Assembly (NCBI GenBank): GCA_021735645.1
Contig: JAIPGP010000007.1
Location: 36-64,035, forward strand
Direction of reading: 5' to 3'
Origin: Candidatus Cloacimonadota bacterium
GTDB lineage: Bacteria > Cloacimonadota > Cloacimonadia > Cloacimonadales > TCS61
DNA length: 64,000 bases
The notes under the pieces were generated by a model. It saw only the letters and a program-made list of their open reading frames with translations, was not told where the DNA came from and made no database searches. A program made the position numbers and the translations under genes. Of this stretch, positions 5,931 through 64,000 are shown in pieces. How positions within the stretch are numbered: position 1 is the stretch's first letter; each line of letters starts with the position of its first letter.

Positions 5931-5932
5931 TA

Positions 5933-10607: not shown

Positions 10608-10656
10608 ATTTACTCCTTAGTTTCTCTGATCATGATATCCATTTCACTTTATTATC

Positions 10657-10685: not shown

Positions 10686-10692
10686 AGATTAT

Positions 10693-14154: not shown

Positions 14155-14167
14155 ATTTTCTCCTTGT

Positions 14168-16456: not shown

Positions 16457-16497
16457 AGTCTCACCTGTTCCCTGTCTTTTGTACGTTAGGACTGTGA

Positions 16498-23050: not shown

Positions 23051-23322
23051 CCAGACCAGGGATGGTCTGGATACGTAGAAACTCAGACCAGGGATGGTCT
23101 GGATATGCAGAAACTCAGACCAGGGATGGTCTGGATACGTAGAAACTCAGACCAGGGATGGTCTGGATATGCAGAAACCCAGACCAGGGATGGTCTGGAT
23201 ACGCAGAAACCCAGACCAGGGATGGTCTGGATACGTAGAAACCCAGACCAGGGATGGTCTGGATACGTAGAAACTCAGACCAGGGATGGTCTGGATACGC
23301 AGAAATCCAGACCAGGGATGGA
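23051..23322. repeat. 32-bp tandem repeat, 8 full + 1 truncated unit, each carrying the hairpin CCAGACC-agggat-GGTCTGG
   Basis: The CAGACC register falls at 23052, 23084, 23116, 23148, 23180, 23212, 23244, 23276 and 23308. The 19-nt hairpin core is identical in all units. The 13-nt linker (atacgtagaaact) varies at 4 positions, always by transitions. Confidence 0.95.
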
Positions 23323-23496
23323 TAGGCACACCCGCCACTGAGTCCACCATGTCCACTGCGTCTTGTTTAGTTCTGGAATGGAAATTGCATTGTATTCATT
23401 TTAGATGGGGTATGGGTACAAAATAGAGGCTTTATCGTATAAAACCTGTAATTATTTTTGACAATGGGAGATAATATGTTAACGGAGGCTGCTAGT

Positions 23497-35861: not shown

Positions 35862-35867
35862 CCCGGC

Positions 35868-35939
35868 AATAACCCAGAACAACAAAGCACATACCCACAT
35901 TTTATTGTGAGATTGTGCTTTGTTGTTCTGGGTTATTGG
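35868..35939. repeat. perfect 25-bp inverted repeat (long hairpin, 22-nt loop) immediately after comEC
   Basis: CAATAACCCAGAACAACAAAGCACA (35868-35892) is the exact reverse complement of TGTGCTTTGTTGTTCTGGGTTATTG (35915-39). No U-tract follows. The 9-mer CAATAACCC also occurs at 35857 and spans the comEC stop. Confidence 0.85.
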
Positions 35940-35973
35940 TGGTATGGGAGCTAAGTAATTGGGGATTATGGGA

Positions 35974-36007
35974 CTTATAGGTCTTATAGGTCTTATAGGA
36001 CTTATAT
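35974..36007. repeat. 9-bp microsatellite CTTATAGG[T/A] x ~3.7
   Basis: The sequence is cttataggt cttataggt cttatagga cttatat, preceded by a degenerate copy (gattatggga). It is intergenic, between comEC and the end of the giant-protein operon. Confidence 0.85.
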
Positions 36008-36050
36008 TTGCTGGTAGCGAGAAAATGGATTGTTACAGGGAACCCTTTTC

Positions 36051-36084
36051 ATAAAAAAGAAAAGCCGGAACTATAGTTCCGGCT
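36051..36084 (-). terminator. intrinsic terminator of the giant-protein/OmpA operon
   Basis: On the minus strand, AGCCGGAA-cuauag-UUCCGGCU is followed by UUUCUUUUUUAU. It lies 24 nt after the stop of 36108..38402. Confidence 0.85.
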
Positions 36085-36107
36085 CTTCAATCTCTCTCAC
36101 TCAAGCA

Positions 36108-38402
36108 TTACTGCTGCAGGATTTTGATTTCAATCCTTCGATTTTTAGCTCTGCCTTCAAAGGTATCATTTTTAGCGATAGGATTAGCGGAGCCATATCC
36201 TGTAGCAATCAGTCTATCTTCGGAAATACCAGCTGAGATCAGGTATGTGATAACTGCCTCAGCGCGTCTTTGCGAAAGATCAATATTATCGGTTTCGTTA
36301 CCGGTATTATCTGTGTAGCCGCAGATTTCGAGTTTCATTTTAGGATTAGCGATCATTTGAGCAGCCAGTTTGTTCAGTGATGGGTATGATTCGCGGGAGA
36401 GCACGGCTATGCCGGATTCGAAAAAGATATTTTCGAGAATACCGGTTTTCATACTTTCAACTTCCAGAATTTTGATTTCGATACGGCGGTTTTTCTCTCT
36501 ACCTTCCTTAGTATCGTTAGAAGCTATAGGATTAGCTTCTCCATAACCTTTTGCTCTAAGAACAGTAGGGTCAATATCTTTATTAATCAGATAATCGACA
36601 ACAGACTGAGCTCTTTTCTGTGAAAGCATAATATTATTGATTTCATCACCTACATTATCAGTAAAGGCAGCGATTTCTATTTTGACCGCGGGGTTATTGT
36701 TGAGCAGTTCTGCGAGCATATCGAGGCAAGCTTTACTGTAGGAGTTGATATCAACTTTCCCGGAAGCGAAGCCAACACATCCCAGCACGCCCTCTTTTAT
36801 AGAGCCGCTTTCCAGAATTTTAAGCTCAATCCGGCGATTCTTAGCGCGTCCTTCATCTGTTTTGTTAGTGGCAATCGGATAATCATATCCATACCCGACA
36901 GCATGTATATTTTCCGCCGGAATTCCCTTATTAACAATATAATTTTTAACAGCTTCAGCTCTGTAAAGAGAAAGCTTTCTATTGTACTGTTCTTCGCCGG
37001 TAATATCGGAGTGTCCTGCAATTTCGATTTTTGTGTCACCATATTCGGCGAGTACAGCAGCTACATTATCCAGAGTGCTATATGATTCCGGTTTAATAAC
37101 AGAACTATCATAATCAAAATTGATACTGAAGCGAGCGAAATCCAGCTTTGTGAGCATGATATTGAAATCAGTGATATCGTCTTCGCCGACATCCAGATAG
37201 CCCTTTTCAACAAAATAGTCATCAGCATTTACCAGATATTCATAAGTTTCACCCTTTTCCAGGTAGACTTCGAAGTAGCCATCAGCGTCAGTTATTACAG
37301 ACTCAGAATAGTCTTCTTCACCAACCATTTTCCAGTCGAGACGGGCAGAAACGGGTTTTCCCATTTCGTCCATCAGGTTGCCGGAAATCATAACGATAGT
37401 AACTTCCTCAGGAATAACTTCCGGTTCAATATAAGCAGTATCAATTATGGTCTCATAGATAATGACAGGTTCCGGAGCGGGTCTTTGTTCATCATCCCAG
37501 GGTCGGAAAACAAATGAGAACTGGTGTGTATCATTGAAAAGCTCATCATATTCTTCATTAATATAGGCATAATTAAACTCAATCCAGCGAATTTTAAGAC
37601 CAAAGCCAGCGGTAAAATGACCATTTCTAAGTCCGAGTCGGAGACCACCTTTAGTATTATTCAGGAAGCTGTCTTCTTCGTAAACCGGCATTATCCAGTT
37701 CCAGTATTCAGTACCCAGAGCGAGATTGAGTTTTTCGCCAGTTTCACCATACAGATCGGCAGCAACGGTTAGGTATTCATAAGGCATCCAGGCAGAGCCG
37801 ATATTATACTGCATTGGCACAGCCTCGCCGGCTATTTCAGATGAATAGAGGTCGCGCATCATTAGAGCGATTTTGAGGTTATATTTGGCAATCATATAGT
37901 TAAATCCCAGATCAATGCCAAATCCTGACTCAGTATCTTCATCAATAGTCGAAAGATAATATTTGAGTGTGATTCCGGCGTTAACACCTTTATAGGCATT
38001 TGCGTAACTGAGAGCCAGATTATTTTCACCGCTATTGAAATCGCCAGTAAAGTTATCAAATTCATCATAGCCTTCCAGGTCATTAAGACCGGCACTCATC
38101 CAGCTCAGGGCAATAGCCCCGAAATCGTATTTTTGTCCGAGGGCAAAATAACTGAGGCTGCGGTCAAGACCCAGATCATTCATAGTCGTGGCAAATTCAT
38201 AGGTATTCAGGAAGTTCAGGTTAGCGGGATTCCAGTAGGCGGAATTCACATTATCGAGACTGGCAGTAACGGCCCCTGCCATACCCATAGCTTTAGCATC
38301 AGTACCCATTTTCAAATATGAGGCTGCGTGATTATTATCAGCAGAAAGCATCCATGAAACCATCAGGATAACGAAGATAATTATTGTTGTCTTTTTCATC
38401 AT
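36108..38402 (-). CDS. outer-membrane protein: FadL/PorV-like beta-barrel + carboxypeptidase-regulatory-like domain + three OmpA-family peptidoglycan-binding domains
   Basis: 764-aa ORF with a signal peptide. The N-terminal motif GTDAKAMGMAGAVTASLDNVNSAYWNPANL is of the FadL/PorV barrel type. The C-terminus has three OmpA_C-like units, each ending NRRIE[LI]KIL (...GHSDITGEEQYNRKLSLYRAEAV..., ...FTDNVGDEINNIMLSQKRAQSV..., ...GYTDNTGNETDNIDLSQRRAEAV...). It starts 8 nt after the upstream stop. Confidence 0.8.
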   Translation of the reverse strand: MMKKTTIIIFVILMVSWMLSADNNHAASYLKMGTDAKAMGMAGAVTASLDNVNSAYWNPANLNFLNTYEFATTMNDLGLDRSLSYFALGQKYDFGAIALSWMSAGLNDLEGYDEFDNFTGDFNSGENNLALSYANAYKGVNAGITLKYYLSTIDEDTESGFGIDLGFNYMIAKYNLKIALMMRDLYSSEIAGEAVPMQYNIGSAWMPYEYLTVAADLYGETGEKLNLALGTEYWNWIMPVYEEDSFLNNTKGGLRLGLRNGHFTAGFGLKIRWIEFNYAYINEEYDELFNDTHQFSFVFRPWDDEQRPAPEPVIIYETIIDTAYIEPEVIPEEVTIVMISGNLMDEMGKPVSARLDWKMVGEEDYSESVITDADGYFEVYLEKGETYEYLVNADDYFVEKGYLDVGEDDITDFNIMLTKLDFARFSINFDYDSSVIKPESYSTLDNVAAVLAEYGDTKIEIAGHSDITGEEQYNRKLSLYRAEAVKNYIVNKGIPAENIHAVGYGYDYPIATNKTDEGRAKNRRIELKILESGSIKEGVLGCVGFASGKVDINSYSKACLDMLAELLNNNPAVKIEIAAFTDNVGDEINNIMLSQKRAQSVVDYLINKDIDPTVLRAKGYGEANPIASNDTKEGREKNRRIEIKILEVESMKTGILENIFFESGIAVLSRESYPSLNKLAAQMIANPKMKLEICGYTDNTGNETDNIDLSQRRAEAVITYLISAGISEDRLIATGYGSANPIAKNDTFEGRAKNRRIEIKILQQ

Positions 38403-38410
38403 GCACCCCC

Positions 38411-41400
38411 TTATTCCTTAATCGCCAGTTTGACGATTTTCTCCAGGGCTTTAGCCCCGACATCATCTTTTCCGGTTATATGTGCGAAATACACCCCTCG
38501 AGCCAGCTTAGTACCGGCGGTGGAGCCATTCCAGCCTTTAGTATAACCCATCCAGTTAATCTCATTAACACCTCTTCCCTGGAAATCTTTTGAGCATACT
38601 TTTCTACCGGCAAAGTCATAAATATCAATTGAAATATCAGCTAAAGGCGTAATAGTATTAATCACAAAATTTGTGCCTGTAACTGTGTTCATCGGGTTAG
38701 GATAGCAGTGAATATCATCGCTGCCGAGGTAAACAATGCTGACATTGAAAACCTGCATGGTAGAATCAGACGGGTCATAAGCGGTAATTTCAAAGTTATT
38801 GGTACCTGTCCAATCAGGCAGTCCCGAGAAAGTAGCAGTTTTAAGATCCGGCAGGAAAGTAAATGGGATGAGTTGAATATCAGGATCGCTGATATCGGTA
38901 GTATTTTCAATATTGATAGTAACTTCAGTTACCACGTTATTATCCACATCAGTGATGAAATCATTGAAATCAACCTCAAGCTGGTTATCGCCAACAATCT
39001 GGAAATCATTAAAAATGGAGATGACAGGAGCATCATTAACGGGATAAACTTCAACCAGGAAAGTATCTCGAACAGAATACAGATATCGATCATAGCAAAC
39101 AATGATAACTGGAGAGACCTGCATAGTGTAACTATTGGGGATAGAGATAATATTCATGATACTATCAGAAATAGCCACGGCAAAATTTTGTGAAGAAGAG
39201 CTGATACTGTATTCGAGATTACTTTGAGGAGTGTTGTCAATGAAATATGAATTAAGATTAAAGCTTTGGATCGGGAAATCTTCCTCCAAGGTCTGATCGA
39301 GCATGATAAGAGAATCATTAAGAGATGGGAAATCATTATTAACCGTACCGGAGAAAACAGCAGGGAAGAAGTTACCGCCTGGGGAATGGAATTCGAATTC
39401 ATCGAGTTCAACCACATCCTGTTCATATTCAGTAGAAACATATTTAAATTCAATGTTAATCAACGAGCCAATACCAAAAAGAGGATTAGTAAAATCATGT
39501 TCTATATAAATAGACCTCTCACCAGCAACCACTCTGGTAGTATCCCCGAGAGTACCTTCAAAATTAAAACCGAGGAATTCCAAAACAGTTGGATCAAAAT
39601 TTAACCAGAACTCGAAACCATAAATTTCCCAGTTTTCCAGAAGGATATTGACATTAACGGGAACAAGGAATTCTTCGCCCGGTTCAAGACCATCCAGGAA
39701 GGGAAGAGTGATAACTACATCGCCTATATCTGGAAAGCCTTCTTCAGGTATCAAAGTAATATTAACAATATCTGAACTGACAATTATCCCATCAGTAACA
39801 TGGAAGGCAACATTTTCATTTACATTCCAGGAGTCATCCACAATAGTAATAGTTAATCCATCAACAATAAAATCATTAATCAAATCATTTCCATCCACAT
39901 ATAGAGTAAGTGAATCACCATCAACATCATAGATATAACTGCTCAGGTCAAAAGTTTCCTGACTATTTTCAAGTCCGATAATACTGGGTGGAAGGTTGAT
40001 AAAGGGAGGATCATTAACCGGTTGTACAACGATGAGAACGGAATCAGTAGCTGTGAGACGCGTTGCATTATCATCTACAGTGAAATAGATCACTTCTTCA
40101 CCATTCCAGTTCATGTAACCTGCCATAATCACAGACAGACCTTGAATATATACCTGGATATTCTGATTACCGGTAACAGTAAGCGTGAGTGGGTCGTTAT
40201 CCACATCAGTAATATACTGAGCCAGATTAAAAGAGCTAACTTCATCTTCCACAAGCAGGAACTGATCTGGAAGAGTAATAAGTGGAGGATCATTAACAGG
40301 ATTAATAACCACTCTCATATTATCGATATTGCTGAGCAGTAGATCATGGACGGTAAATTCTACAAATTCGTAGCCCGTCCAGTCAGTTTCAGCGAGGATA
40401 GTAACATTCAGACCATCAGTTTCAACAATCAGGTGATCGCTGCCCTCCGAAGTTATATAAAGATCAGAATAATCATTATCAACATCATTGACGTAATTTG
40501 TGAAATCCAGAAGCAAAGAGTCACCCTCATTAACATTGACGCTGACAGGTAAATTGATGGTGGGGGCATCATTAACGGAATTAACAATCACCAGAACATC
40601 ATCGGAATCCTGCAGTCTGGCACCATCTTCATAAACAGTGAACGTGAGATTTTCTGTCCCGAACCAGTTTGCTATTGCTGAGAAGGTTACTTCAAGATCA
40701 ATAATATCAGCAATAATATTGGTATTTCCGGAAACCATAAGTGACAGGTCTTCTAAAGGAGTATCAATATCAGAAATATATGATGAGAAATCTCTTTCAT
40801 GAGTATTATCTTCATTAAATCTGAATTGAACAGGTAAATTAATCACAGGGGCATCGTTGATCGGCGTAACAATCACATTCACTTCATCATCATCAGTAGC
40901 CCGTGTTATCTGGTCGCTGACATAGAATGTGATGTCTTCATTACCATTCCAGTTAGCACCAGCAGTGAATGTAACCATGTACTGATTATAGGTGATATTG
41001 ATATTAACCGCATTTTGTGAAGAAAGCATGAGATTATCACCATCAACATCATTAATATACTGTCCGAAATCAACCACCAGACTTAAATCTTCACCAAAAC
41101 TGAAAGAATCAGGAAGATCTATTGTGGGGGCATCATTTACAGCAGCAACAATAAGATTCACATTATCAGAATCAATGCCACCGGCATTATCATTAATCTG
41201 GAATGAAATATTTACTGTGCCATTGAAATTAGGAACAGGAGTAAATGTAACCTGAGTTCCAGTGATATTGATGCCTACATTAGGATAGGTTCCCACAGAA
41301 GTGATTGTAATATCATCAATGACATTATCAATCAGAGTAATATATTCAGTGAAATCAACTACAAGAGCAGTATCTTCCACCGCATTGAAAGCATCAGGAA

Positions 41401-44400
41401 ATTCCAATACTGGCGGGTCATTTACAGGTGTAAAACTAACTTGAGCATCTTCAGAAGCATAATACTGACCGTCAGCAACAGTGAATTCATGTGGTTCCGA
41501 GCCAAACCAGTTGAGATTTGGAATAAAAGTAACCTGATATTCGTTCACAATAATCTGGACATTATCTCCTTCAGAGACAATGATTATAAGGTCTTCGGAA
41601 TCAATATCTGAGATGTAGGGTGTGAAATCAACGACCCCTTGCATGTCTTCCAGGAATGAGAAACCTCCAACAGGCAAATTAATCTGAGGCGGATCATTTA
41701 CAGCGGCTACATTCACGAGCACGGAATCTGAGTCGAGTAAACGTCCGGTCTGGTCACTCACATAGAAAGTAACCATTTCGGCACCGAACCAGTTTTCATC
41801 GCCAATAATATGAACTTCCAGAGGGTCAGTTACGCCATAAGAAATATTCAGGAATTGGGTATCATCATTTAAGATTATGATAACATCATTATCATAATCG
41901 CTGGCATAATTGCTGAAATCAGAGATAAATTCAACATCTTCCTGTAATAGAAATTCAGGAGGCAACAGCAATTGAGGAGGATCATTAACGGGAGTAACAT
42001 TGACCACAAAACCCTGTGAAACTGTTTGAGATTCGGGGTCATTGGCAATGATAATAATTCCAGCCTGTCCATACCAGTTCAAGAGAGAAGAAATCGTCAG
42101 GATAGAATCATCAATTTGAGCAATAACCTGAGCTGAATCATACTGGGCAGTATATTGCAGAGGGTCACCATCCTGATCATAGAAATATTCATTAAGATCA
42201 AAGGAGAAATCGGCGAAATCCTCGAGTTTATTAAAATCAGGGATATCCTGAATAACTACCGGGGGATAATTAACAGAAATCACGGTGATCAGCGTAGAAT
42301 CAACAGCAGTTAGTCCGCCATTATCAGTAGCATAGAAGAAGACAGTTTTTTCACCGAACCAGTTTTGGGCAGGCATGATAGTGACCACGCCATTCAAGAT
42401 GGAAATATTAAAGTTATTTTCTCCAGGTTCCAGAAATGAATAAACCAGAAAATCTGTGACTGTCAGGTTTAATTCCGGATCGGTATCATAATCAGCGAAT
42501 ACATTATTCAAGTTAATGGAACTATCTGAGCTGTTTTCCATGATTTCCAGATCAGGCAGTGGATTTTGCACATATGGTGGAGTATTAACAGGGGTTACAT
42601 AAACCATCACGGTATCAATATCAATAGCCCTTCCTACCATATCATTCACAGAGAACACGAGGGCTTCATAGCCATTCCAATTTGGTAAAGCGCTCAAATT
42701 AACCATTGTCCCGGCAATTTGAGGGAAGATATAATCAGTTTCATTAACGAGATTTATAGTTAAAATATCAAAGTCAATATCAAAAATGAACTGACTGAAA
42801 TCTATAGCCAGGTCAGAATTTTCCGGGAAAGAGAAGCCTTCATCAGGGAGATTAATACTGGGAGTATCATTAACTGGGATGACTGTAACATTAAAGACTT
42901 CTTCCACAAAAATAGCTCCATCATTAACAGAGATAGTAAACTGTTCCGTACCGTTCCAGTTTTGAGGTGCAGTAAATGTGGCGATTCCATTGATAAAGAC
43001 GGCATTGATATTAGGTACTGGAGCATTGGCATTCAAACTGATAAACAGGGAGTCACTATCGATATCGGAGATATAACCATTTCCCAGATTGAAATTAACC
43101 ATCAGAGAAGCATCTTCCAGGAAAGAGAAGCCTTCATAAGGTAGATTAATCACTGGAGCGTCATTAACGGAATTAACAATAACTACTGTACTGTCAGAAT
43201 TATAATAGTCATATCCGGGAGCATAAATAGTGAAAGTGATAGTTTCTGAGCCAAACCAGTTGGCAGCAGCCGATAAAGCTACTTGATTAGTAAGAGAATC
43301 AATCTGAACAATCACGTTTTGATTTCCCTCAGCAGAAAGATAGACCTGAATATTACTATCATTATAGATGTATTGATTGAAATCAACATTAATTGAGCTG
43401 TCTTCATTGAAAGAGAAGGAAGCTGGCAAATAGATAACCGGCATCGTAGTATCATCAGTAACAATGATATCTACCGCATCATCAGAAGTATCTTGTCCAT
43501 CATCTACCGTGAAAGTGATTCTTTCCACTCCCAGCCATTCATTAGTGGTAAATGTAACCTGCAAGCCATTAATTACAACACCAACATTCACATTACCCGA
43601 ATATGATAAAGAAAGTGGATCACCATCGAGATCAAAGACATAATTAATAAAATTGACATTATAGCTCTGGTTAGGATTGAAAACAAATTCCAGAGGCAGA
43701 TTTATCTGGGGAGGGTCATTGATGGGGATGACGCTGACATTAACATTATCTTCTGCGATAAACTCACCATCTGAAACATAAAAAGTCATAACTTCAAAAC
43801 CGTTCCAGTTATAATCTGGGGTAAAAGTAACCATCAATCCCTCAATACTGACATCAATATTTTCATTTCCTGCAACTGACAAGAAGAGAGAATCGCTGTC
43901 ATCGGTTATATACTGGTTGAAATCGCGCGTTAGTATTTGATCTTCATTAAAGGAGATCACAGGAGGAAGCTCAATCACAGGAGGGTCATTCGCGGGCAGC
44001 ACGAAAACTTCAGTAGTATCAGAGACAATTGCTCTTCCCTGGTTATCGTCAGCGGAGAAAACGAGTATTTCGGAACCAAACCAGTTTTCTAATGCACTGA
44101 AAGTGACCATAAGCTGATCAATATCCACAATTACATTTTGATTACCTGATACAGAAAGAGTAATTGTATCCAGGTCAATATCAAAAATATACGGGGCAAA
44201 GTCAACTTGCAGGGACTGATCTTCATGCAATGTATAGGAATCCTCAATATCCATAACAGGGGGATCATTTAAAGGATAAACGATGATCTCGACTTCATCA
44301 TCAGACATTTGGGTTTCATCATAAACTGTGAAAGTGATCATTTCTGAGCCATTCCAATCAGGCAGTGGCACAAATTCAACAACCAGACCAGTAATATTAA

Positions 44401-46108
44401 CCTGAACATTAATACCTTCCGCAGCCAGGTTCAGGATTTCACTATCAACGTCATACACGTATCCTTCAGCTTCAAAATCTACAGTGATACTGGTATCTTC
44501 ATCTAACTCGAAATAATCTGGTAACTGGATAACCGGTGCATCAGGCACAGAAATTACATTAATAGTAACGTCATCGGAATCAGAAAGACCCGAAGTATCC
44601 ATAACAGTGAAAGTGATCAGCTCTGATCCGAACCAGTTTTGCGGGGCAGTGATATTAAAAACAGCTGGAGCAATAGTAAAGAAATTCAATTCGATATTGC
44701 CAGAGAAGTAGATATTAAGCTCAGAATCATCAACATCGCTGATAAAATCAGTTAAATCCAGCATCAGGTTTTCATCTTCATTAAAGTGATACTCATCCTG
44801 GGGGATATTGATAACCGGGGCGTCATTTTCAGGTTCTATCACAATTTCCACAAAATCATTATCGGTAAGGCGTGACATTTCATCTGAAATAACAAAATTA
44901 AGCACTTCCGAGCCAAACCAGTTATCATCCGGGATCAGAGTCACGGAAAAGCCGTCAATTTCGACAGATATATTATCATTATCGGTGACAGTAAGAGTAA
45001 GCTCAAGATTATCAATATCAGAAATATACTGAGCTAGATCAAGAGTTTCCGGATTATCTTCTGTCATAAAATACTGCGTAAAGGGGATATCAATCACAGG
45101 TGCATCATTTACCGAGTTCACAGTAACCAGCACCTCCTGAGTAGAACTTGCGCCAAACACATCAGTAGCCTCAAAAGTGACCGTTTCTGAACCATACCAG
45201 TTGGCGGGAGCAGAGAATTGCACAACTAAGCCGGCAATTTCAATGATGACATCTTCAGTCTGATAGGCAGAAAGAACATCAATCATATCTCCTTCGGGAT
45301 CAGAGATGTAATTAGAAAAGTATTCGATAAGATCCTGATCCTCATCAAAGTTGAAGCCCAGAGGAGGGAACAGAAATACAGGAGGATCATTGACGGGTTC
45401 CACAGTAATGGTAACCAGTGTTTCTTCTCCGTTAAGCACGCCATCTGAAGCCTGATAGGAGAAGTAATCCACACCAAAGAAATTGGTATCAGGCTGATAG
45501 GTGAAAGCGCCATCACTATTAAACAGTAATACACCATGAACAGCATCAGTGATCAGAAGAGCCGTTAGATTGAGACCATCTGGATCGAAGTCATTAGCCA
45601 GGACGCCATTTTCAGCATCAATACTAAGTAACATATCTTCTGAAACAGTATAATCATCGGGTTGTGAGACGGGTGGCAAATCCGCCGGAGCATATAGCTG
45701 ATATGGCTCATAAAGCGAACCTGCAGCCGAATTATCTGCGAAATAAACCAGTGAATCACCTTCGCATTCATATACTAAATCTGTGTCAGCATCATAGATC
45801 ATAAAACTGATAATTTCCTGAGCCGAAGATTCAGCATTACTGCGGACAGTAAGATACCACATAGCATACGGACCTACCTGGTCCCAGACAGCAATAGCAC
45901 GACAATCACTAACACCACCGGGTCCAAATGCTGCCAGAATGTTTTCGGGATTATCGCGATTAAACTCTTGCTCATATAAGGAAACTTCAGCATAGACCTG
46001 CATATTGTACTGATTACCTGTCATTGGAGTCCAAATTGGTGGATCAGCAAACATCAGGCAGGTAAGTACTAAAGCAAAAGCAAATAATAATATTTTTTGT
46101 TTATACAT
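38411..46108 (-). CDS. giant surface protein: N-terminal shared module, ~20 tandem-95/cadherin-like repeats, cohesin-like domain, variant T9SS C-terminal domain
   Basis: 2565-aa ORF with signal peptide MYKQKILLFAFALVLTCLMFA. There are about 20 repeat boundaries of the V-N-D-[AP]-P-[VQTLF]-[IL] type at ~95-100 aa spacing. A cohesin-like segment sits at nt ~39340-39733. The C-terminus CYPNPMN...IDIYDFAGRKV...GVYFAHI is CTD-like. Confidence 0.8.
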   Translation of the reverse strand: MYKQKILLFAFALVLTCLMFADPPIWTPMTGNQYNMQVYAEVSLYEQEFNRDNPENILAAFGPGGVSDCRAIAVWDQVGPYAMWYLTVRSNAESSAQEIISFMIYDADTDLVYECEGDSLVYFADNSAAGSLYEPYQLYAPADLPPVSQPDDYTVSEDMLLSIDAENGVLANDFDPDGLNLTALLITDAVHGVLLFNSDGAFTYQPDTNFFGVDYFSYQASDGVLNGEETLVTITVEPVNDPPVFLFPPLGFNFDEDQDLIEYFSNYISDPEGDMIDVLSAYQTEDVIIEIAGLVVQFSAPANWYGSETVTFEATDVFGASSTQEVLVTVNSVNDAPVIDIPFTQYFMTEDNPETLDLAQYISDIDNLELTLTVTDNDNISVEIDGFSVTLIPDDNWFGSEVLNFVISDEMSRLTDNDFVEIVIEPENDAPVINIPQDEYHFNEDENLMLDLTDFISDVDDSELNIYFSGNIELNFFTIAPAVFNITAPQNWFGSELITFTVMDTSGLSDSDDVTINVISVPDAPVIQLPDYFELDEDTSITVDFEAEGYVYDVDSEILNLAAEGINVQVNITGLVVEFVPLPDWNGSEMITFTVYDETQMSDDEVEIIVYPLNDPPVMDIEDSYTLHEDQSLQVDFAPYIFDIDLDTITLSVSGNQNVIVDIDQLMVTFSALENWFGSEILVFSADDNQGRAIVSDTTEVFVLPANDPPVIELPPVISFNEDQILTRDFNQYITDDSDSLFLSVAGNENIDVSIEGLMVTFTPDYNWNGFEVMTFYVSDGEFIAEDNVNVSVIPINDPPQINLPLEFVFNPNQSYNVNFINYVFDLDGDPLSLSYSGNVNVGVVINGLQVTFTTNEWLGVERITFTVDDGQDTSDDAVDIIVTDDTTMPVIYLPASFSFNEDSSINVDFNQYIYNDSNIQVYLSAEGNQNVIVQIDSLTNQVALSAAANWFGSETITFTIYAPGYDYYNSDSTVVIVNSVNDAPVINLPYEGFSFLEDASLMVNFNLGNGYISDIDSDSLFISLNANAPVPNINAVFINGIATFTAPQNWNGTEQFTISVNDGAIFVEEVFNVTVIPVNDTPSINLPDEGFSFPENSDLAIDFSQFIFDIDFDILTINLVNETDYIFPQIAGTMVNLSALPNWNGYEALVFSVNDMVGRAIDIDTVMVYVTPVNTPPYVQNPLPDLEIMENSSDSSINLNNVFADYDTDPELNLTVTDFLVYSFLEPGENNFNISILNGVVTIMPAQNWFGEKTVFFYATDNGGLTAVDSTLITVISVNYPPVVIQDIPDFNKLEDFADFSFDLNEYFYDQDGDPLQYTAQYDSAQVIAQIDDSILTISSLLNWYGQAGIIIIANDPESQTVSQGFVVNVTPVNDPPQLLLPPEFLLQEDVEFISDFSNYASDYDNDVIIILNDDTQFLNISYGVTDPLEVHIIGDENWFGAEMVTFYVSDQTGRLLDSDSVLVNVAAVNDPPQINLPVGGFSFLEDMQGVVDFTPYISDIDSEDLIIIVSEGDNVQIIVNEYQVTFIPNLNWFGSEPHEFTVADGQYYASEDAQVSFTPVNDPPVLEFPDAFNAVEDTALVVDFTEYITLIDNVIDDITITSVGTYPNVGINITGTQVTFTPVPNFNGTVNISFQINDNAGGIDSDNVNLIVAAVNDAPTIDLPDSFSFGEDLSLVVDFGQYINDVDGDNLMLSSQNAVNINITYNQYMVTFTAGANWNGNEDITFYVSDQITRATDDDEVNVIVTPINDAPVINLPVQFRFNEDNTHERDFSSYISDIDTPLEDLSLMVSGNTNIIADIIDLEVTFSAIANWFGTENLTFTVYEDGARLQDSDDVLVIVNSVNDAPTINLPVSVNVNEGDSLLLDFTNYVNDVDNDYSDLYITSEGSDHLIVETDGLNVTILAETDWTGYEFVEFTVHDLLLSNIDNMRVVINPVNDPPLITLPDQFLLVEDEVSSFNLAQYITDVDNDPLTLTVTGNQNIQVYIQGLSVIMAGYMNWNGEEVIYFTVDDNATRLTATDSVLIVVQPVNDPPFINLPPSIIGLENSQETFDLSSYIYDVDGDSLTLYVDGNDLINDFIVDGLTITIVDDSWNVNENVAFHVTDGIIVSSDIVNITLIPEEGFPDIGDVVITLPFLDGLEPGEEFLVPVNVNILLENWEIYGFEFWLNFDPTVLEFLGFNFEGTLGDTTRVVAGERSIYIEHDFTNPLFGIGSLINIEFKYVSTEYEQDVVELDEFEFHSPGGNFFPAVFSGTVNNDFPSLNDSLIMLDQTLEEDFPIQSFNLNSYFIDNTPQSNLEYSISSSSQNFAVAISDSIMNIISIPNSYTMQVSPVIIVCYDRYLYSVRDTFLVEVYPVNDAPVISIFNDFQIVGDNQLEVDFNDFITDVDNNVVTEVTINIENTTDISDPDIQLIPFTFLPDLKTATFSGLPDWTGTNNFEITAYDPSDSTMQVFNVSIVYLGSDDIHCYPNPMNTVTGTNFVINTITPLADISIDIYDFAGRKVCSKDFQGRGVNEINWMGYTKGWNGSTAGTKLARGVYFAHITGKDDVGAKALEKIVKLAIKE

Positions 46109-46193
46109 CCCGTACCTCCAAATTTATTTTTTTCTTCATTTTTATTCCTTTATCTAATAATTCACTTCTAACCTTTTATAATAATTTTATCTG

Positions 46194-46224
46194 TGTCCGG
46201 GCTGCTTTTTGGGCAGCCCGGACA
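46194..46224 (-). terminator. GC-rich hairpin between giant genes (attenuator-like, no U-tract)
   Basis: tgTCCGGGCTGC-tttttgg-GCAGCCCGGAca lies 18 nt after the stop at 46242. An A/U-rich sequence follows, not a U-run. Confidence 0.3.
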
Positions 46225-46241
46225 ATCTGGTGAATGAGCAA

Positions 46242-53297: not shown

Positions 53298-53334
53298 TTC
53301 AATAAACCCCCTCGATTGAGTTAATTTTCATCAA

Positions 53335-53361
53335 GCTGATAGCCCTGTATGGGCTATCAGC
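53335..53361 (-). terminator. GC-rich hairpin between giant genes (attenuator-like, no U-tract)
   Basis: GCTGATAGCCC-tgtat-GGGCTATCAGC lies 12 nt after the stop at 53373. The SD (GAGGGGG) and start of the next gene follow it. Confidence 0.3.
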
Positions 53362-53372
53362 CAATAATATTA

Positions 53373-56300
53373 TTATTTTATGATGATCAATTTACGATGC
53401 AATGAAGTACCAGCCGATTTAAGGTGATAGAAATATAGACCAGCAGCAACTGAATTTCCCTTGCTGTCAGTTCCATCCCATTCAGCCACATGGAAACCAG
53501 CATCTTGAACTTCATTAACAATATCACACACTTTTTGTCCCTTAATGTTATAAAGAGACAATACTATTTGACCTGTAACGGGTAAACCATACCTGAAACT
53601 GGTACAGTAATCTCTATCCCCAGTTTTCAGACTAAACGGATTAGGATAGTTTTGATTTAGAATATAACTGTCTGGCACATCCAGGTCTTCACCACCTTCA
53701 GTAATATTGAATTCAATTGAGAGCAGATTATAAGGATTACCTAACTTAGTATCAGCATTAAAAATCAGCTCATATTCACTAATATGTTCAAAACCTTCAG
53801 AGTCATAATAAACAAAGTGAAGTGGTTCATTTTCTATATTACCTACAATAGTGAAGTACCAGAAACCATAATTCAGTTGCGGCACAAATTGCCAGTATCC
53901 ATTGCTTCGACAATTACCATTAATATCAAATACAGCACAGGAGACATCATTCAATGGCATAATATTACCAGAAGGGGTTGTCATCTGAGCCATAGCGATC
54001 ATGTTATCTTCCGTACCGGGCATAATCTCCCAGCGTAAAGAAGAATTCTGAATTTTGAATTTTGAATTTTGAGAGCTTCCATCCTGTGCATTTCGAGTCA
54101 CCAGTGCAGGATATATGAGCTCATCGGATTGGGTTAATTTTACTTTATAACCTACTCCGGGCTGCATAGTATCAAGGTCACCGAGCCAGAGATCCCAATC
54201 TGGATAGTAATCGGCAGAATGCTGTTGATCTTTCACGGTTTCCACATTATCCAGAATTGAAGCAAGTGCATTACTTAAGCTGTCTGGTGAATGCGGATAA
54301 TACGCTATCCAGTTCCAGTCCTCTAACATCTCAATTGGAGTGGAAGCAGGTATAACAGAGCCGTTTACAACGAATTCCTGGAATCCCTGGTTCATTTGAA
54401 CCAGATATCCCTCTCCATCAGTTACATAATCCAGATCACCCATCCAATCATTATATTCAGGAATGTACAGGGAAGATTGGGTCTGGTTTTTAACTACGTT
54501 AACATTATCACTTAAAGGATCAAAGACTCCATTTAAACTTGTATCTTCCGGATGAACATTAAATGAAATCCAGTTCCAGTTTTCAATCAGGTCAAATACC
54601 TGCATACCGCCCATAGCTACATAAACCATAAAAGTATCACTAACTGCAGAACGATATATACCATCTTCAGCAGTTACCACAACTTCGGTTTCACCATACC
54701 AGTTAAGAACAGAAGAAATTGTCAGTAATTCCTGGTTGATCAATGCTGAAATCTGGAGAGGCTCGTAATCTACCATATAGGTTAATTCATTATCCACATC
54801 CTGGAAGTAATCACTAAGATTGACATCGAATGGATCGAAATCTTCTATAAGATAATAATCGGGTATCTCCTGAACTAGCACGGGATCATCGTTAACTGAA
54901 TTTACAATAACATTCACGCTATCAGTAGCTGTTAACCTTGTTTGCATATCATCTACAGTGAAATAGATAACTTCATTTCCATACCAGTTTTCCGGTGCTG
55001 AGAAAGTTACTACCAGTTGATCAATAACAATATTGATATTCACATTGCCATCTACATACAGCTGTAATTCCGGTGAATCAACATCGGAAATGTATGATGC
55101 AAAGTCTTCGATCAATTGCTCATCTTCATTAAAAGTGAAGAAATCTGGTAAAACAATCTCTGGTGGATCATTAACATTTATTACTTCGATAGTAACTGTA
55201 ACTGCTGGTGAATTGACATCACCATCATAAGCCATATACTCAAAATAGTCAAAGCCGACAAAGCCTGGGTCTGGAGCATAAATAAACGCACCAGAAGCCT
55301 GCAGACTAAGAGTTCCATTAGTTACGTCACCATTCGGTGCTAATACAGCAGTGAGAAGTAAAGGATAATTATCATCAGTATCATTAGCAAGAACTCCCAT
55401 ATCAGTATTAATAATCAGGATACTATCTTCTAATACAGTATAAGCATCAGGTAAAGCAACAGGAGTCAGATTTCCATAGGAAGCTACGCTAACTACGGTA
55501 CTGTCACGATTGCTTGCACCTTGATTATCTGTAACGGTTAAAGTAACTGGAGTCGTGCCAGCTGGGAATGAAGCTGCTACTATTTCACCTTCAGCAGTTT
55601 CTCTATTTCTATCTCTGGAAGTAGTGCCGGAATCCCAGCTCCATAGCCAGGATACAATTTCACCATCCAGATCATAAGATCCGCTGCCATCAAGAGTGAT
55701 TATGGCTGTATCTGTGGTATCAGCAACTCCATTATAAGTACCACCAGCATCAGCTACAGGATTATCATTAACTGAGTTAATTATGATATCTGCATAAGTG
55801 ATCCCGGAATAAGTCTCCCCGTCAAAGGCAGTGTAACTGAATTGGTCAGTACCAAAATAGTTTAGCTGAGGAATATACTCAAATGAGCCATCAGAATTCA
55901 GACTAACCAGACCATGCAGAGTGCCGTCTATTAATACTGCTGTCAATGTTTCAGGATAATCGTCATCAGTATCATTAGCAAGAACTCCCAGATCAGCGGA
56001 AATAGTTAATATGACATCTTCATCTGTTTCGTATTGATCAGATACAGATACAGGTAACTGATTATTATAAGAAGCGACTCCTACTAAGGCTGTATCTGTG
56101 TCAATTGCCCCTTCAGAATCAGTTACAGTAAGAGTAACGATAGTAGTGTTAACCGGGAAACTAATTGTAACAATTTCGCCTTCGGCTGAACCATCTGACC
56201 ATGACCACTGATAACTGACAATCGAGTTTTCCACATCATAACTTCCGGAGGCGTCTAAAGTGATCAGAGCAGTGTCAGATTGATCTGCCTGGCCATTGTA

Positions 56301-62300: not shown

Positions 62301-64000
62301 TCCTACGCTGGCATCCCATACTGCAAAATTTACTAATTCAACTGATTCTCCCTGAATGTTCATGGATACTATTGACTGACCATCATTATCAACCACATAA
62401 CCTACTGATCTACATTCACCATCAACGAAAGCTCCCACTTCATCTCCAGGAGATGCCGGGATTCCATCTATAGTTACTTCCCCATATGCCACAGTACTAT
62501 TTGTATAATTAACAACATTCCATGGACGTGGGAAGACCTGAACACCTTGTGAATAACCAGATGTATAAGAAGCAATTGGTAATAAATCCGGTGGATAACC
62601 AATATCATTTCCCGGGTCTGTTTGTGTATAGTATGAAACCTGACAGATTTCATCTTCACTAACATCATACACGGCAAAATGAACTATTTCTGGTTCTTCA
62701 CCCTGAATATTCATAGTTACCAATCCATCGCTATTCTGGATATTTACATATCCTATACCTCTGCATTCACCATTAATAAATGCACCTACTTCATCATATT
62801 CTGCTGCATTTTCACCATCAATAGTGACAACGCCATAAGCTATGGTACTATTGGAATATACTACCGGTAGCCAAGGTCTCGGATAAAATTCTGACCCTTG
62901 ACCATACCAGCACCATTCATAATTTACTATCTCGCCATCCAAATCATAAGACCCGCTACCATCAAGGTTAATAAGTCCCAGTCCATTGAAATCCGCATCT
63001 TCCTGATATGGGCCATCTGCATCCGCAACAGGTGCATAATTATGTTCTATTACAGTTACAACTGTAGTTTCACTATCAGTGGCTCCATCATCGTCTGTTA
63101 CGGTCAATGTCACTTCATATTCGCCTATCGGGAACAATACATCCAGAGTTTCACCTGTAAAACAATTGGCAAGTACTGGTATTATCTCCGTTGCTGCTGC
63201 AATTGGCAGTAAATTCGGAGGATAACCAAGATCATTACCAGGACTGGTCATTGTAGTATAAGAGACTCCGATCACTTCATCTACACTACTGTCATAGACG
63301 GCAAAGTGGACTGTCTCGGCTAGTTCGCCCTGGATATTCATACTGCTGATCGATTGACCTTCAATAAGCTCTATGTAACCTATTCCTCGACATTCTGTCC
63401 CGACAAAAACGCCTACCTGATCTTCCACTGCAGCTAATTCACCATCTATGGTTACATTACAATAAGCTACTGTGCTGTTGGTGTAATTTACTACACTCCA
63501 GGGACGTGGAAATTCGGTGCGTGAATGTGATAATTCTAATCCTCTGGAACTGCTGGCATGTACAGGAAGCAAATTGGGAGGATATCCAAGATTTCCACCT
63601 GGCATAGTTTGGGTTGTAAAAGCTACATTATAAACTGCATCCATACTGGCATCATAAACTGCAAAATTGACTGTCTCAATGCTTTCACCCTGAATATTCA
63701 TTGTTGTAATTGTGATTCCATCATTTAATACAATGCTTCCAGTACCTCTACATTCTGAACCTACAAAAACACCAACTTCATCATTTACTGATGCTGAAAC
63801 CCCATCTATTGTTACTTCACAATATGCTACTGTGGTATTAGTATAGGTTACTACATCCCAGGGACGCGGGAATCCACCTGGTATTGTTCCACCACTACTG
63901 ATTGCTGCTATGGGCAGCATATCAGGTGGATAGCCGATATCATTACCCGGATTGCTCATGGTGCTATAGGATACTCCATATACGGCATTAGCACTCAGAT
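53373..64000 (-). CDS. giant surface protein, 5'-truncated by the window edge: >=14 FPRPW...CRG modules interleaved with PKD-like domains, alternating PKD/cadherin-like pairs, tandem-95 repeats, duplicated NWNWI domain, C-terminal shared module, T9SS C-terminal sorting domain
   Basis: The ORF track starts at Met 63959. The frame stays open to nt 64000 and reads ...LSANAVYGVSYSTMSNPGNDIGYPP, which is the tail of a further repeat module. So the true start is outside the window and the protein exceeds 3541 aa. The C-terminus NYPNPFSLK...LSLYNIKGQKV...GLYFYHLK...KLIIIK is a CTD. Confidence 0.85.
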   Translation of the reverse strand, partial: LSANAVYGVSYSTMSNPGNDIGYPPDMLPIAAISSGGTIPGGFPRPWDVVTYTNTTVAYCEVTIDGVSASVNDEVGVFVGSECRGTGSIVLNDGITITTMNIQGESIETVNFAVYDASMDAVYNVAFTTQTMPGGNLGYPPNLLPVHASSSRGLELSHSRTEFPRPWSVVNYTNSTVAYCNVTIDGELAAVEDQVGVFVGTECRGIGYIELIEGQSISSMNIQGELAETVHFAVYDSSVDEVIGVSYTTMTSPGNDLGYPPNLLPIAAATEIIPVLANCFTGETLDVLFPIGEYEVTLTVTDDDGATDSETTVVTVIEHNYAPVADADGPYQEDADFNGLGLINLDGSGSYDLDGEIVNYEWCWYGQGSEFYPRPWLPVVYSNSTIAYGVVTIDGENAAEYDEVGAFINGECRGIGYVNIQNSDGLVTMNIQGEEPEIVHFAVYDVSEDEICQVSYYTQTDPGNDIGYPPDLLPIASYTSGYSQGVQVFPRPWNVVNYTNSTVAYGEVTIDGIPASPGDEVGAFVDGECRSVGYVVDNDGQSIVSMNIQGESVELVNFAVWDASVGEIAGVSFSTFTNPGYNIGYPPDLLPIAASGSLNRNEFPRPWAVVNYTNSTVAYGEVTINGFPASPGDEVGAFVGDECRGTGTVTDDVRTSIVSLNIQGETVEIVNFAVWDESENEVLQVVYTTMTNPGHDIGYPPNLLPIAASSEIQSDILNCVQGEYVDVYFPTGTYEVTLTVTDDDGAVATDQTTVTINDYNYIPVADANGPYEAVAETGGVAGVQLDGSGSYDLDGSIVNYEWCWLGGGSAIFPRPWTVVNYTNSTVAYSRVTIDGENATIRDQVGAFVGSECRAIGSVFIDNNHSYSTFNIQGEIEETVNFAVFDYSENQVWSVSYYTQTNPGNDIGYPPDFLPINAVSTNGSYSYAFPRPWNVVNYTNSTVAYGRVTIDGLMAAEEDEVCAFINNECRGVGFVTLNRTESIVTLNIQGETIETVHFAVYDQSANAVYGVNYYTQTDPGGDIGFPPDLIPLAALSSNRLDMGLSRSRSFPRPWQPVYYTNSTVAYGRVTIDGANADLEDQVGAFINNQCRGVGDVAMNEGLSIVSMNIQGESVETVNFAVYDASEDEVLSVTFTTQTHPGGDIGLPPDLLPIAASTVTNYNCVTGVNPLVYYPVGTYFVTLTVTDDRGATDSDLTTVTVTEYNYPPVADAGGPYEEIASIETGIATVNFDGSGSYDIDGEIVNYEWCWGGTPGTGSSFPRPWNEVIYTNTTLAYGEVTINGNPASPGDEVGAFVDGECRGIGYVTDDARTSIVSLNIQGESVELVHFAVYDASEAEVVSVYYTTMTNPGYDIGYPPDLLPIAAVSNSRASKTIAMRTEFPRPWNEVIYTNTTLAYGEVTINGNPASPGDEVGAFVNYECRGIGYVTDDARTSIVSINIQGESVELVQFAVYDVSEDEVVSVYYTTMTNPGYDIGYPPNLLPIAAYSESTDEICIYGESPSYDFLPGEYEVTLTVTDNDGDTASDVTIVTILSENIPPVADAGEDYFEQAQDGYAEVTLDGSGSYDMDGDIVSYYWNWEGGGVVIFPRPWTPVVYTNSTIAYGIVTIDGEPAGAGDQVAAFVGNECRGVANVTLDTSRRVRSKNTRDLISRVTLNIQGEAVEQVQFAVWDYSNDQVYSVGNTYMTDPGGDIGYPPNELQINASSFARSRLSAIGEMVTVVFPIGIYNVDLTVTDNAGATDSDEAIVTVGAQAQPPHIFPRPWEVVTYSNSTVAYGIVTIDEEPAAVGDEVAAFVGNQCRAVASVYHIDDGRQREISAHVTMNIQGEVVELVRFAVWDASADEVLSVAFSTYTNPGFDIGYPPDELPIAATRYPRPNLPDYPWYINPNIWDDFTTAVCTVFIDDLPAATGDMVGAFDLNGIPRGEGEVTYNGSLGLTTFNILGDYPEVIYFAVWDESADFMCYVHEYTYSAPGDTLYLTINAYTNMLPVAVPGGPYIAQADLTGLADVTLDGSGSYDFDGEIVSYQWIFNSNVISEAELFTYAFEVGLQTVTLVVTDDDGGIGSSEFTVEVISMENEPPVAIGDNYEIDEDNQLLVTTVNGVLINDIDTVPGGWPDSLSAVLTDNVIHGSLEFNADGSFIYTPVQNYSGQDRFRYMAYDGIDYSEEALVLINIIPVNDPPVADANGPYSGQIDVSGFAEITLDGSGSYDLDGEIISYLWTWNDTITASGVTATGIFPFGPTIVYLTVTDNNGATDTDSSPVGISDYINIAPIAVADSFYTMEDQSLVVSTSMGIMINDTDDGYPGRLVAVLADSTSNGTLIYDVDGWDGAFTYIPDTNFNGVDQFAYYLYDGQTFSNVVLVTINVESVNDLPVADAGGPYQTTADNNGYATVTIDASSSYDLDGSIVLYQWTWGGNNIATGMILEAVFPVGTTIVTLTVVDDSGDSDTDTALVGVAQYNNQIPVAINDAYETNEDDILNVDAEMGVLANDTDDDFPEALQAVLLDDPANGTLILNSDGSFIYTPESNFNGTDTFTYAAYDGQTLSPLTQVVITINSINDEPVADAGGPYNGQADQSDTALITLDASGSYDVENSIVSYQWSWSDGSAEGEIVTISFPVNTTIVTLTVTDSEGAIDTDTALVGVASYNNQLPVSVSDQYETDEDVILTISADLGVLANDTDDDYPETLTAVLIDGTLHGLVSLNSDGSFEYIPQLNYFGTDQFSYTAFDGETYSGITYADIIINSVNDNPVADAGGTYNGVADTTDTAIITLDGSGSYDLDGEIVSWLWSWDSGTTSRDRNRETAEGEIVAASFPAGTTPVTLTVTDNQGASNRDSTVVSVASYGNLTPVALPDAYTVLEDSILIINTDMGVLANDTDDNYPLLLTAVLAPNGDVTNGTLSLQASGAFIYAPDPGFVGFDYFEYMAYDGDVNSPAVTVTIEVINVNDPPEIVLPDFFTFNEDEQLIEDFASYISDVDSPELQLYVDGNVNINIVIDQLVVTFSAPENWYGNEVIYFTVDDMQTRLTATDSVNVIVNSVNDDPVLVQEIPDYYLIEDFDPFDVNLSDYFQDVDNELTYMVDYEPLQISALINQELLTISSVLNWYGETEVVVTAEDGIYRSAVSDTFMVYVAMGGMQVFDLIENWNWISFNVHPEDTSLNGVFDPLSDNVNVVKNQTQSSLYIPEYNDWMGDLDYVTDGEGYLVQMNQGFQEFVVNGSVIPASTPIEMLEDWNWIAYYPHSPDSLSNALASILDNVETVKDQQHSADYYPDWDLWLGDLDTMQPGVGYKVKLTQSDELIYPALVTRNAQDGSSQNSKFKIQNSSLRWEIMPGTEDNMIAMAQMTTPSGNIMPLNDVSCAVFDINGNCRSNGYWQFVPQLNYGFWYFTIVGNIENEPLHFVYYDSEGFEHISEYELIFNADTKLGNPYNLLSIEFNITEGGEDLDVPDSYILNQNYPNPFSLKTGDRDYCTSFRYGLPVTGQIVLSLYNIKGQKVCDIVNEVQDAGFHVAEWDGTDSKGNSVAAGLYFYHLKSAGTSLHRKLIIIK

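Follow-up and report, generated by a model that had tools for sequence, protein, structure and literature searches.

The DNA analysed here, hereafter called the window, is a 64,000-nt stretch of contig JAIPGP010000007.1 from Candidatus Cloacimonadota bacterium, and all coordinates given below are window positions. Between 36108 and 64000, four open reading frames (ORFs) of >3541, 2351, 2565 and 764 aa follow one another on the minus strand. The first three encode very large repeat proteins, which we named giants A, B and C in the order of their transcription, and the last encodes an outer-membrane barrel with peptidoglycan-binding domains, which we named the anchor. Our analyses make it probable that this is a type IX secretion system (T9SS) surface-adhesin locus, and that its last two genes are a cognate pair, with giant C as the cargo and the anchor as the carrier that also attaches it to the cell.

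Genes and protein domains of the locus

Giant A (53373 to >64000, >3541 aa) is cut at its 5' end by the end of the window and contig, since its frame is still open where the window stops, its sequence starts in the middle of an internal repeat, and the source contig is only ~119 bp longer than the window. A gap of 75 nt (53298-53372) separates it from giant B (46242-53297, 2351 aa), and a gap of 133 nt (46109-46241) separates the latter from giant C (38411-46108, 2565 aa). The anchor gene (36108-38402, 764 aa) starts only 8 nt past the stop codon of giant C, and an intrinsic terminator on the same strand, with a GC-rich stem of 13-15 bp and a T-run (36059-36088, -24.7 kcal/mol), lies 20 nt past the anchor stop. 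This is the best terminator-like site within 35.8-64 kb; terminator-like matches overall occurred at chance level (11 vs 10.2 expected, and 5 vs 5.8 expected). Both of the longer gaps contain hairpins without a T-tract, of 17 pairs between A and B (-23.3 kcal/mol, z = -6.5) and of 12 GC-rich pairs between B and C (-25.2 kcal/mol, z = -6.1), which are about as stable as the final terminator. The number, strand and length of the genes, the size of the gaps, the single canonical terminator at the very end and the GC hairpins lacking a U-tract had all been noted in the preliminary description of this DNA, and they were borne out by the ORF analysis and by the structure scans. Calling the whole an operon, however, suits the junction between giant C and the anchor, which is the sole one to argue strongly for coupling, better than it suits the two upstream junctions with their stable hairpins, and that all four genes are co-transcribed can only be inferred. 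A scan for sigma-70 promoters was uninformative (76 found vs 64 expected, and 28 vs 32), and the region gave no match when scanned for tRNAs, for Rfam families and for tandem repeats at the DNA level.

Giants B and C, as well as the anchor, start with typical signal peptides. The preliminary description had assigned one to all three giants, which holds for B and C and does not extend to giant A, where none is visible because the N-terminus falls outside the window. Its claim of tandem-95/cadherin-like repeats, on the other hand, proved correct for each of them: searches with Pfam and NCBIfam models matched tandem-95 repeats in 7 (A), 18 (B) and 20 (C) stretches, Big_9 and Cadherin_4/5 in all three giants, PKD in giant A, and C-terminal domains (CTDs) of the FlgD_ig/Por_Secre_tail type at the C-termini. 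The unassigned module that the three proteins had been said to share was also recovered, using an iterated hidden Markov model (HMM), as a ~90-aa unit that we call modA, present in 14 copies in A, 2 in B and 1 in C, and in no other protein of the window. Giant A is organized as 13 N-terminal modA copies interleaved with PKD, followed by tandem-95/cadherin repeats, two copies of a second module (modB), one modA and the CTD; giant B as a signal peptide, modA, ~18 tandem-95 repeats, modB in two copies, another modA and the CTD; and giant C as a signal peptide, an N-terminal modA, ~20 tandem-95/cadherin repeats, a cohesin domain and the CTD. The last 450 aa of giants A and B are 44% identical.

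The AlphaFold model of modA (predicted local distance difference test, pLDDT, 82) is a beta-sandwich, for which no PDB match was obtained at E < 0.001, the best being the starch-binding domains CBM20 and CBM41 at E ~0.02-0.03. We considered modA as a possible element for recognition of the barrel and rejected it, as modA is missing from the barrel-adjacent giants of related loci L001-L010. The modB module ('NWNWISF…') occurs as two tandem copies of ~90 aa common to A and B, just before the last modA and the CTD (46880-47447 on the minus strand in giant B, residues ~3132-3320 in giant A), and neither module has a Pfam match. The cohesin domain of giant C (residues ~2136-2187; Pfam-matched part 39548-39703, minus strand) was identified by PF00963 with 27.1 bits, above the cut-off of 24.1, whereas a dockerin was detected neither in giants A and B nor in the peptidases of the window. 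For Cloacimonadota of an Antarctic lake, "cellulosome-like" assemblies of cohesin and dockerin, with scaffoldins anchored by CTDs, have been put forward (PMC8542988).

The anchor is made of three parts, all encoded on the minus strand: a signal peptide and a 14-strand barrel of the FadL/PorV type (residues 1-300, 37503-38402), a Pro/Glu-rich linker with a carboxypeptidase-regulatory-like (CRD-like) domain (residues 301-420, 37143-37502), and three tandem OmpA_C-like domains (residues 421-764, 36108-37142). Residues 25-299 match the PorV/PorQ family model NF033709 over nearly its full profile (82.6 bits, E 3.8e-23), and relatives of the barrel score 81.4-90.7 bits with the same model. Scores with the equivalog models of this family are far below their cut-offs (62.9 of 220 bits for PorQ, 47.7 of 325 for PorV2 and 34.7 of 250 for PorV), and the PorP/SprF models (TIGR03519/PF11751) gave no match at E <= 10 for the window barrel and none at E <= 0.001 for three Cloacimonadota relatives. 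An alignment-based AlphaFold model of the barrel (pLDDT 86, predicted template modelling score 0.81) has 14 strands, and its best fold match in the PDB is 8gl6_F (E 7e-10, template modelling score 0.71), followed by FadL and TodX; 8gl6_F is PorV of F. johnsoniae in a substrate-bound translocon, and PorV was also the sole significant PDB sequence match in a profile search (E 2.4e-5).

Past the barrel, residues 336-514 align to positions 422-604 of the PorE profile NF052230, which correspond to its CRD and OmpA domains, with 235.7 bits; the cut-off of 600 bits for this model was not reached, and no TPR or propeller was found in the anchor. Compared to PorE, therefore, the anchor is without TPR and WD40 and retains CRD and OmpA, the latter in three copies. 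The CRD-like region also gave a weak match to CarboxypepD_reg (E 0.16). The three OmpA domains were recognized as separate stretches by PF00691 (229 bits in total), and the motifs of the peptidoglycan site, xTD...LSxxRA and NRRIE, are intact in every copy, so that the earlier portrayal of this protein as a FadL/PorV-like barrel with three peptidoglycan-binding domains was accurate as to domain content. Because both ends of a 14-strand outer-membrane barrel lie in the periplasm, a C-terminal tail that binds peptidoglycan is topologically sound.

Two CTD classes and the pairing of one of them with a barrel

CTD-type C-termini had been described for all three giants, and they are indeed present, but they are not equivalent. 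Upon alignment and clustering, the CTD of giant C grouped with the CTDs encoded next to barrels in related loci, apart from those of ordinary cargo and of giants A and B. The class I pattern (…YPNPFNPET…YN[IL][KR]G.KV…SG[IV]YFY…K..[LMI][IM]K) is carried by giants A (53373-53663, minus strand) and B (46242-46517, minus strand), by the two C25 peptidases and the M14 peptidase of the window, and by two other window cargo proteins, while the class II pattern (…YPNPa…IYDFAGKKV…K[VL][AG]RGxYFAR…EKVIKIAVK) is carried by every giant encoded directly upstream of a barrel, and by giant C (38411-38713, minus strand). With HMMs of the two classes trained without the window giants, giant C scored 75 bits for class II vs 31 for class I, giant B 52 vs 104, and giant A 33 vs 78. 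Among the eight CTD proteins of the window, giant C alone has a class II signal. The likeness between giant C and the giants of other contigs is confined to the ~100-aa CTD, and their passenger domains belong to different families; the CTD class therefore travels with the barrel and not with the passenger.

Scores with library models for type A CTDs were, for giant B, 28.3 bits with TIGR04183 (cut-off 23) and 30.8 bits with PF18962 (cut-off 27); for giant A, 23.9 bits with TIGR04183, thus reaching its cut-off of 23, and 27.4 bits with FlgD_ig; and for giant C, 20.9 bits with TIGR04183 (cut-off 23) and, on the isolated CTD, 25.6 bits with PF18962 (cut-off 27). As for type B, TIGR04131 had no match at E <= 0.1 in any giant, and CHU_C (PF13585) gave 16.8-24.7 bits on the giants, which is under its cut-off of 27 and no higher than on the window peptidases (23-26.5 bits).

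The proteins nearest to the barrel in the database are stand-alone barrels of ~318 aa from Cloacimonadota, 36-41% identical. Searches based on the barrel, among them a genome scan with an alignment of 10 close sequences, yielded 10 Cloacimonadota loci, 7 of them distinct, and the order giant, barrel (316-334 aa), OmpA protein (630-830 aa) was found in 10/10, with giants that span 1253 to >3318 aa as far as the loci reach and attain up to 5692 aa, and with C-termini resembling the window CTDs. In most relatives, where barrel and OmpA domains are encoded by two genes (split loci), the barrel is of 316-337 aa. The third protein has the same four domains as PorE, namely TPR, PD40 propeller, CRD and OmpA, and it matches the PorE profile NF052230 over nearly the full length at 194-220 bits (cut-off 600); judged by sequence, these proteins are PorE-like and not PorE equivalogs. 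In a subgroup of Cloacimonadota loci (L091-L115, for instance L091 7396-10110), the OmpA protein that follows the barrel is longer, ~900-930 aa vs ~650 aa.

A second scan, started from the CTD with the pattern K[VL][AG]RG[TVA]YFA in metagenome contigs, provided 67 usable loci, and a barrel was encoded directly downstream of the CTD in 65 of them. An OmpA protein came next in 50 loci, in 4 the barrel was fused to three OmpA domains, in 7 the contig ended after the barrel, and in 4 no OmpA protein came next; in the remaining 2, which had no barrel downstream, both CTDs scored better as class I. An OmpA partner, either separate or fused, was hence present in 54 loci. The gap between cargo and barrel genes had a median of 10 nt, compared to 8 nt in the window, and outside the window lineage there are 67 cognate pairs, which correspond to 43 barrel clusters at 90%, 20 at 70% and 8 at 50% identity. 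It is not the case, then, that the barrel gene usually occurs without an adjoining giant CTD gene, given its presence in 10/10 and 65/67 loci, and a gene for CTD cargo, one for a FadL-type barrel and an OmpA_C protein are found next to each other together with a CTD subclass specific to this pairing. More distant barrels in Calditrichota and Bacteroidota are of the PorV2 type and lie in an unrelated gene context. The nearest relatives of the barrel in Bacteroidota (~75 bits) were also considered as members of the same system and were rejected, since they are PorV2 (NF052325) in a conserved, housekeeping-like context without giants.

The fusion of barrel and OmpA domains in a single polypeptide recurs in four other contigs, which are the fused cases counted above and close relatives of the window; there the protein is of 763-769 aa and 80-86% identical over its full length, while the adjoining giant is only 44-72% identical. 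The fusion is thus genuine, and it is under stronger constraint than the body of the adhesin. An exhaustive representative search added a fifth fused contig, with a barrel 70% identical and a class II CTD 11 nt upstream, and a frameshift or assembly artefact was rejected as an explanation, the full-length protein being kept in five other contigs. Periplasmic extensions are in fact recurrent among relatives of the barrel: out of 38 long ones, 14 have OmpA and ~8 have TPR.

Two further observations concern such fusions in other lineages. First, a PorV/Q-family barrel with a single OmpA domain is directly preceded by a small CTD-bearing ORF in L163 (8892-13073) and in P0016; the small ORFs upstream of these two distant fusions are of 189 aa, with a faint CHU_C match, and of 130 aa, with a weak FlgD_ig match, and the L163 pair is flanked by Peptidase_S74 (fibre-chaperone) proteins. 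The pairing of a CTD protein with a barrel-OmpA protein may thus extend beyond giants and beyond Cloacimonadota. Second, P0015 and P0016, in which the barrel is followed by TSP3 repeats and OmpA, have a partial match to the NCBIfam model of TraB, the outer-membrane exchange protein of Myxococcus (137 and 119 bits, C-terminal half only), and this may point to a wider class of barrels that partner adhesins and carry tails for peptidoglycan binding.

Proposed mechanism, competing explanations and neighbouring genes

Based on these results, we propose that giant C is exported first by Sec, across the inner membrane, and next by the T9SS translocon, and that its class II CTD would be captured by the extracellular loops of its own PorV/PorQ-family barrel rather than by the general PorV. 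The CTD would remain uncleaved and bound to the barrel, which would in turn be tied to the cell wall via its periplasmic tail of a CRD-like and three OmpA_C domains. With the barrel tied to the wall by its own tail, giant C would be a static fibre or adhesin that is stapled to peptidoglycan across the outer membrane, and possibly a cohesin-bearing scaffold. The idea of a surface protein held on a peptidoglycan-tethered barrel, put forward in the preliminary description, remains the best reading. Giants A and B, with their class I CTDs, would instead follow the general carrier route like the peptidases of the window, and could be paralogous neighbours, possibly partners of giant C, without being clients of the barrel. 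As for the origin of the anchor, in most Cloacimonadota relatives the anchoring job would be divided between the barrel and a separate PorE-like protein, and in the window lineage the two would have become fused, with loss of the barrel-binding TPR/propeller half. Such a loss is in agreement with what is known about PorE, because its WD40 probably contacts PorP and is thus the likely PorP-binding part, while its OmpA_C is essential (PMC12773672).

We acknowledge that several points weigh against this model. The NF033709 score of the barrel (82.6 bits) is just under the family cut-off of 90 bits, and a barrel with three OmpA tethers is awkward for a carrier that has to dock on the translocon and then move away. 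The library models see the class II CTD as type-A-like, with FlgD_ig/Por_Secre_tail scores at or near threshold, and a general PorV could therefore still handle and cleave it. As every clear example comes from a single phylum, common descent rather than selection may account for part of the synteny. Additionally, T9SS core genes do not lie in the window, and it is from the literature and from the many CTD cargo genes of the window that a T9SS is taken to be present in the phylum. Lastly, a functional coupling of giants A and B to the anchor is conceivable because they have modA in common with giant C and are on the same strand.

Among the competing explanations, the one that fares best, even if we deem it improbable, is that the barrel works in secretion only, as a SprF-like shuttle or chaperone that extracts the very long giant C, the cargo being then released or handed over to an attachment complex of the sortase type and the OmpA tail merely positioning the barrel. 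The synteny and the CTD classes would fit such a shuttle equally well, and type B carriers are indeed required for secretion itself, in stoichiometric amounts (PMC12618676). A threefold peptidoglycan tether, or a PorE-like partner as in 50 of the related loci, is however better suited to a fixed anchor, and the F. johnsoniae substrates encoded beside PorE-like genes are the static ones.

The chances are slimmer for the arrangement originally envisioned, in which all three giants would be exported and held on the one barrel-OmpA protein as a single four-gene fibre system. The common strand, the short gaps and the only canonical terminator at the end would agree with it, and so would the modA and tandem-95 repeats common to the three giants and the C-terminal 450 aa shared by A and B. 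The C-terminal signals, however, speak for a different arrangement: A and B score as class I, like the C25 and M14 peptidases of the window, and in all related loci examined it is the gene directly upstream of the barrel that ends in a class II CTD, the flanks of those loci being too short to count further giants. The A/B and B/C hairpins, as stable as the terminator, also go against a single unit. Attachment of all three giants to the barrel is thus a part of the preliminary description that we do not uphold.

Far less credible is that the locus truly belongs to the type B pathway of Bacteroidota, made of type B CTD cargo, a PorP/SprF barrel and PorE. Gene order and logic are the same, CHU_C matches the CTDs weakly, and the anchor tail fits the PorE profile; yet TIGR04131 has no match at E <= 0.1, the CHU_C scores of 17-25 bits are under the cut-off of 27 and equal on ordinary cargo, neither the window barrel nor its Cloacimonadota relatives match PorP/SprF, all matching the PorV/PorQ family instead, and the PorE scores are far under the 600-bit equivalog cut-off, so that membership in the type B or PorP/SprF families was rejected at the sequence-family level. 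Scarcely any weight can be given to the last alternative, namely that the anchor is a general outer-membrane-to-cell-wall tether or porin of the OmpA/Pal kind that sits beside the giants by chance, for although its OmpA domains match many generic OmpA/Pal/MotB models and PorV/Q barrels fused to OmpA (14) or TPR (~8) recur among the 38 long relatives, it is already contradicted by the synteny. A specific CTD subclass adjoins the barrel in 65/67 and in 10/10 loci, the gap is of 8 nt in the window and of a median 10 nt in relatives, and distant barrel-OmpA fusions as well have a small CTD-bearing ORF just upstream.

Carrying the cognate-pair model further, it is conceivable, albeit rather doubtful, that Cloacimonadota evolved their own third class of T9SS signal and carrier, independently of the type B/PorP pair of Bacteroidota, in which the signal, a type-A-derived class II CTD, is recognized by a paralogue of the PorV/PorQ family and a PorE-like tether leads to the cell wall. 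According to this speculation, the fusion would be a natural "Rosetta stone" of a permanent, peptidoglycan-stapled socket, the only role of the PorE TPR/propeller would be to hold CRD-OmpA on the barrel, and the cohesin-bearing giant C would be the scaffold of a cellulosome-like or multi-fibre assembly that may recruit A and B.

The rest of the window contains a cluster of ordinary T9SS cargo (7146-19503, minus strand), made of two tandem 1153-aa C25 (gingipain-like) paralogues whose CTDs are 84% identical, an M14 carboxypeptidase and a protein of 1001 aa in which one stretch is weakly GH43-like, and, further on, a 964-aa protein (23458-26352, plus strand); all these cargo proteins have class I FlgD_ig/Por_Secre_tail CTDs. 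Before the cluster, at 5475-7093, a CapC-like gene (PF14102) adjoins a gene with a Mur-ligase middle domain, an arrangement that resembles the CapB/CapC pair of poly-gamma-glutamate synthesis. Between lepA and the gene for the 964-aa cargo, ~970 bp (22492-23457) contain no ORF of >=100 aa, and no tRNA or Rfam match was found there. Finally, on the other side of the anchor terminator, a ComEC-like gene (33531-35861, plus strand) is closely followed by a 33-nt inverted repeat (35867-35938, 91% complementary, 6-nt loop), which is probably the terminator of that gene and faces the one of the anchor gene; the spacer that separates these convergent terminators has, at 35966-36010, a 9-nt unit (TTATAGGTC-like) in overlapping copies spaced 9 nt apart.

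Comparison with known carriers and anchors of the T9SS

How T9SS cargo is sorted among release, linkage to lipopolysaccharide, gliding and static anchoring is an active question, studied almost only in Bacteroidota. PorV, the general carrier, uses its extracellular loops to bind type A CTDs inside the SprA translocon and then brings the cargo out (PMC10994853), while the cognate PorP/SprF-like barrels of type B cargo stay attached as anchors, and for operons that include a PorE-like gene a static complex with a tie to peptidoglycan is assumed (PMC9143113, PMC12618676). The PorE-PorP-PG1035 complex and SprB-SprF anchoring have been described (PMC9143113), and Fjoh_3952/3951/3950 is a static substrate operon (PMC12618676). 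The CTDs of PorZ and PorU, furthermore, are kept uncleaved and held on PorQ and PorV, respectively (PMC10947112, PMC10202324), and a protective role of cognate PorV-like barrels against CTD cleavage was already suggested in a 2023 review. The preliminary statement that no system of this composition had been described was hence too strong, because cargo, cognate FadL-type carrier and peptidoglycan-binding OmpA_C partner are already known as a combination. A full-text search of an incomplete library returned no paper on the Cloacimonadota class II CTD, on its PorV/Q-type barrel or on the fusion.

The window locus, like ~70 related ones, combines a barrel of the PorV/PorQ type with a modified signal of type A, and not PorP/SprF with type B, which suggests that cognate pairing of CTD and carrier is a general and evolvable principle of the T9SS. 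The fused barrel-CRD-OmpA protein would support a direct contact between carrier and PorE, with the TPR/propeller half as the carrier-binding part, and cargo plus fused anchor could be regarded as a minimal two-gene module. A class II CTD with an adjoining barrel, moreover, would be a simple sequence rule to predict surface-fixed giants in an uncultured phylum that is biotechnologically relevant and found in anaerobic digesters and anoxic lakes.

PorV itself (PDB 6H3I; 8GL6 chain F) is the best structural match of the window barrel; PorV, however, serves all type A cargo and is recycled, while the window barrel, of ~280 vs 367 residues, is linked to one cargo and would be tethered to the wall. 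The PorZ-PorQ and PorU-PorV pairs offer a second parallel, as in both a barrel of the PorV/PorQ family permanently holds a protein by an uncleaved CTD that is not of type B, as we propose for giant C, and, with 62.9 bits for PorQ and 34.7 bits for PorV, the window barrel is by sequence the nearer to PorQ. Unlike the anchor, PorQ and PorV have neither a peptidoglycan-binding tail nor a PorE-like partner gene, their clients are machinery components and not giant adhesins, and the window barrel scores far below their equivalog cut-offs (220 and 250 bits).

With PorE-PorP-PG1035 of P. gingivalis, the window locus would share a barrel that has a CTD protein bound on its outer face and, on its inner face, OmpA_C that binds peptidoglycan. 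That complex, however, is a subcomplex of the core machinery with a small type B cargo, whereas the anchor would be a cargo-specific accessory beside a 2565-aa adhesin, and PorE, with its TPR-WD40-CRD-OmpA_C order (PMC12773672), probably makes its contact via WD40, in place of which the window has a covalent fusion.

The nearest likeness in gene order is to Fjoh_3952/3951/3950, where a large CTD surface protein, a cognate FadL-type 14-strand barrel and an OmpA_C protein are also encoded one after the other, a static anchoring of the cargo via the carrier and the cell wall is likewise proposed, and the PorE layout is again seen in the third protein of the split Cloacimonadota loci. The window, however, comes from Cloacimonadota and not from Bacteroidota, its barrel stands by sequence at the edge of the PorV/PorQ family and not in PorP/SprF, its CTD is of a type-A-derived subclass and not type B, and barrel, CRD and three OmpA domains are joined in one polypeptide without TPR or propeller. 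The kind of system is thus already described, and what sets the locus reported here apart is its phylum, the family of its barrel, its CTD subclass derived from type A and its fusion.

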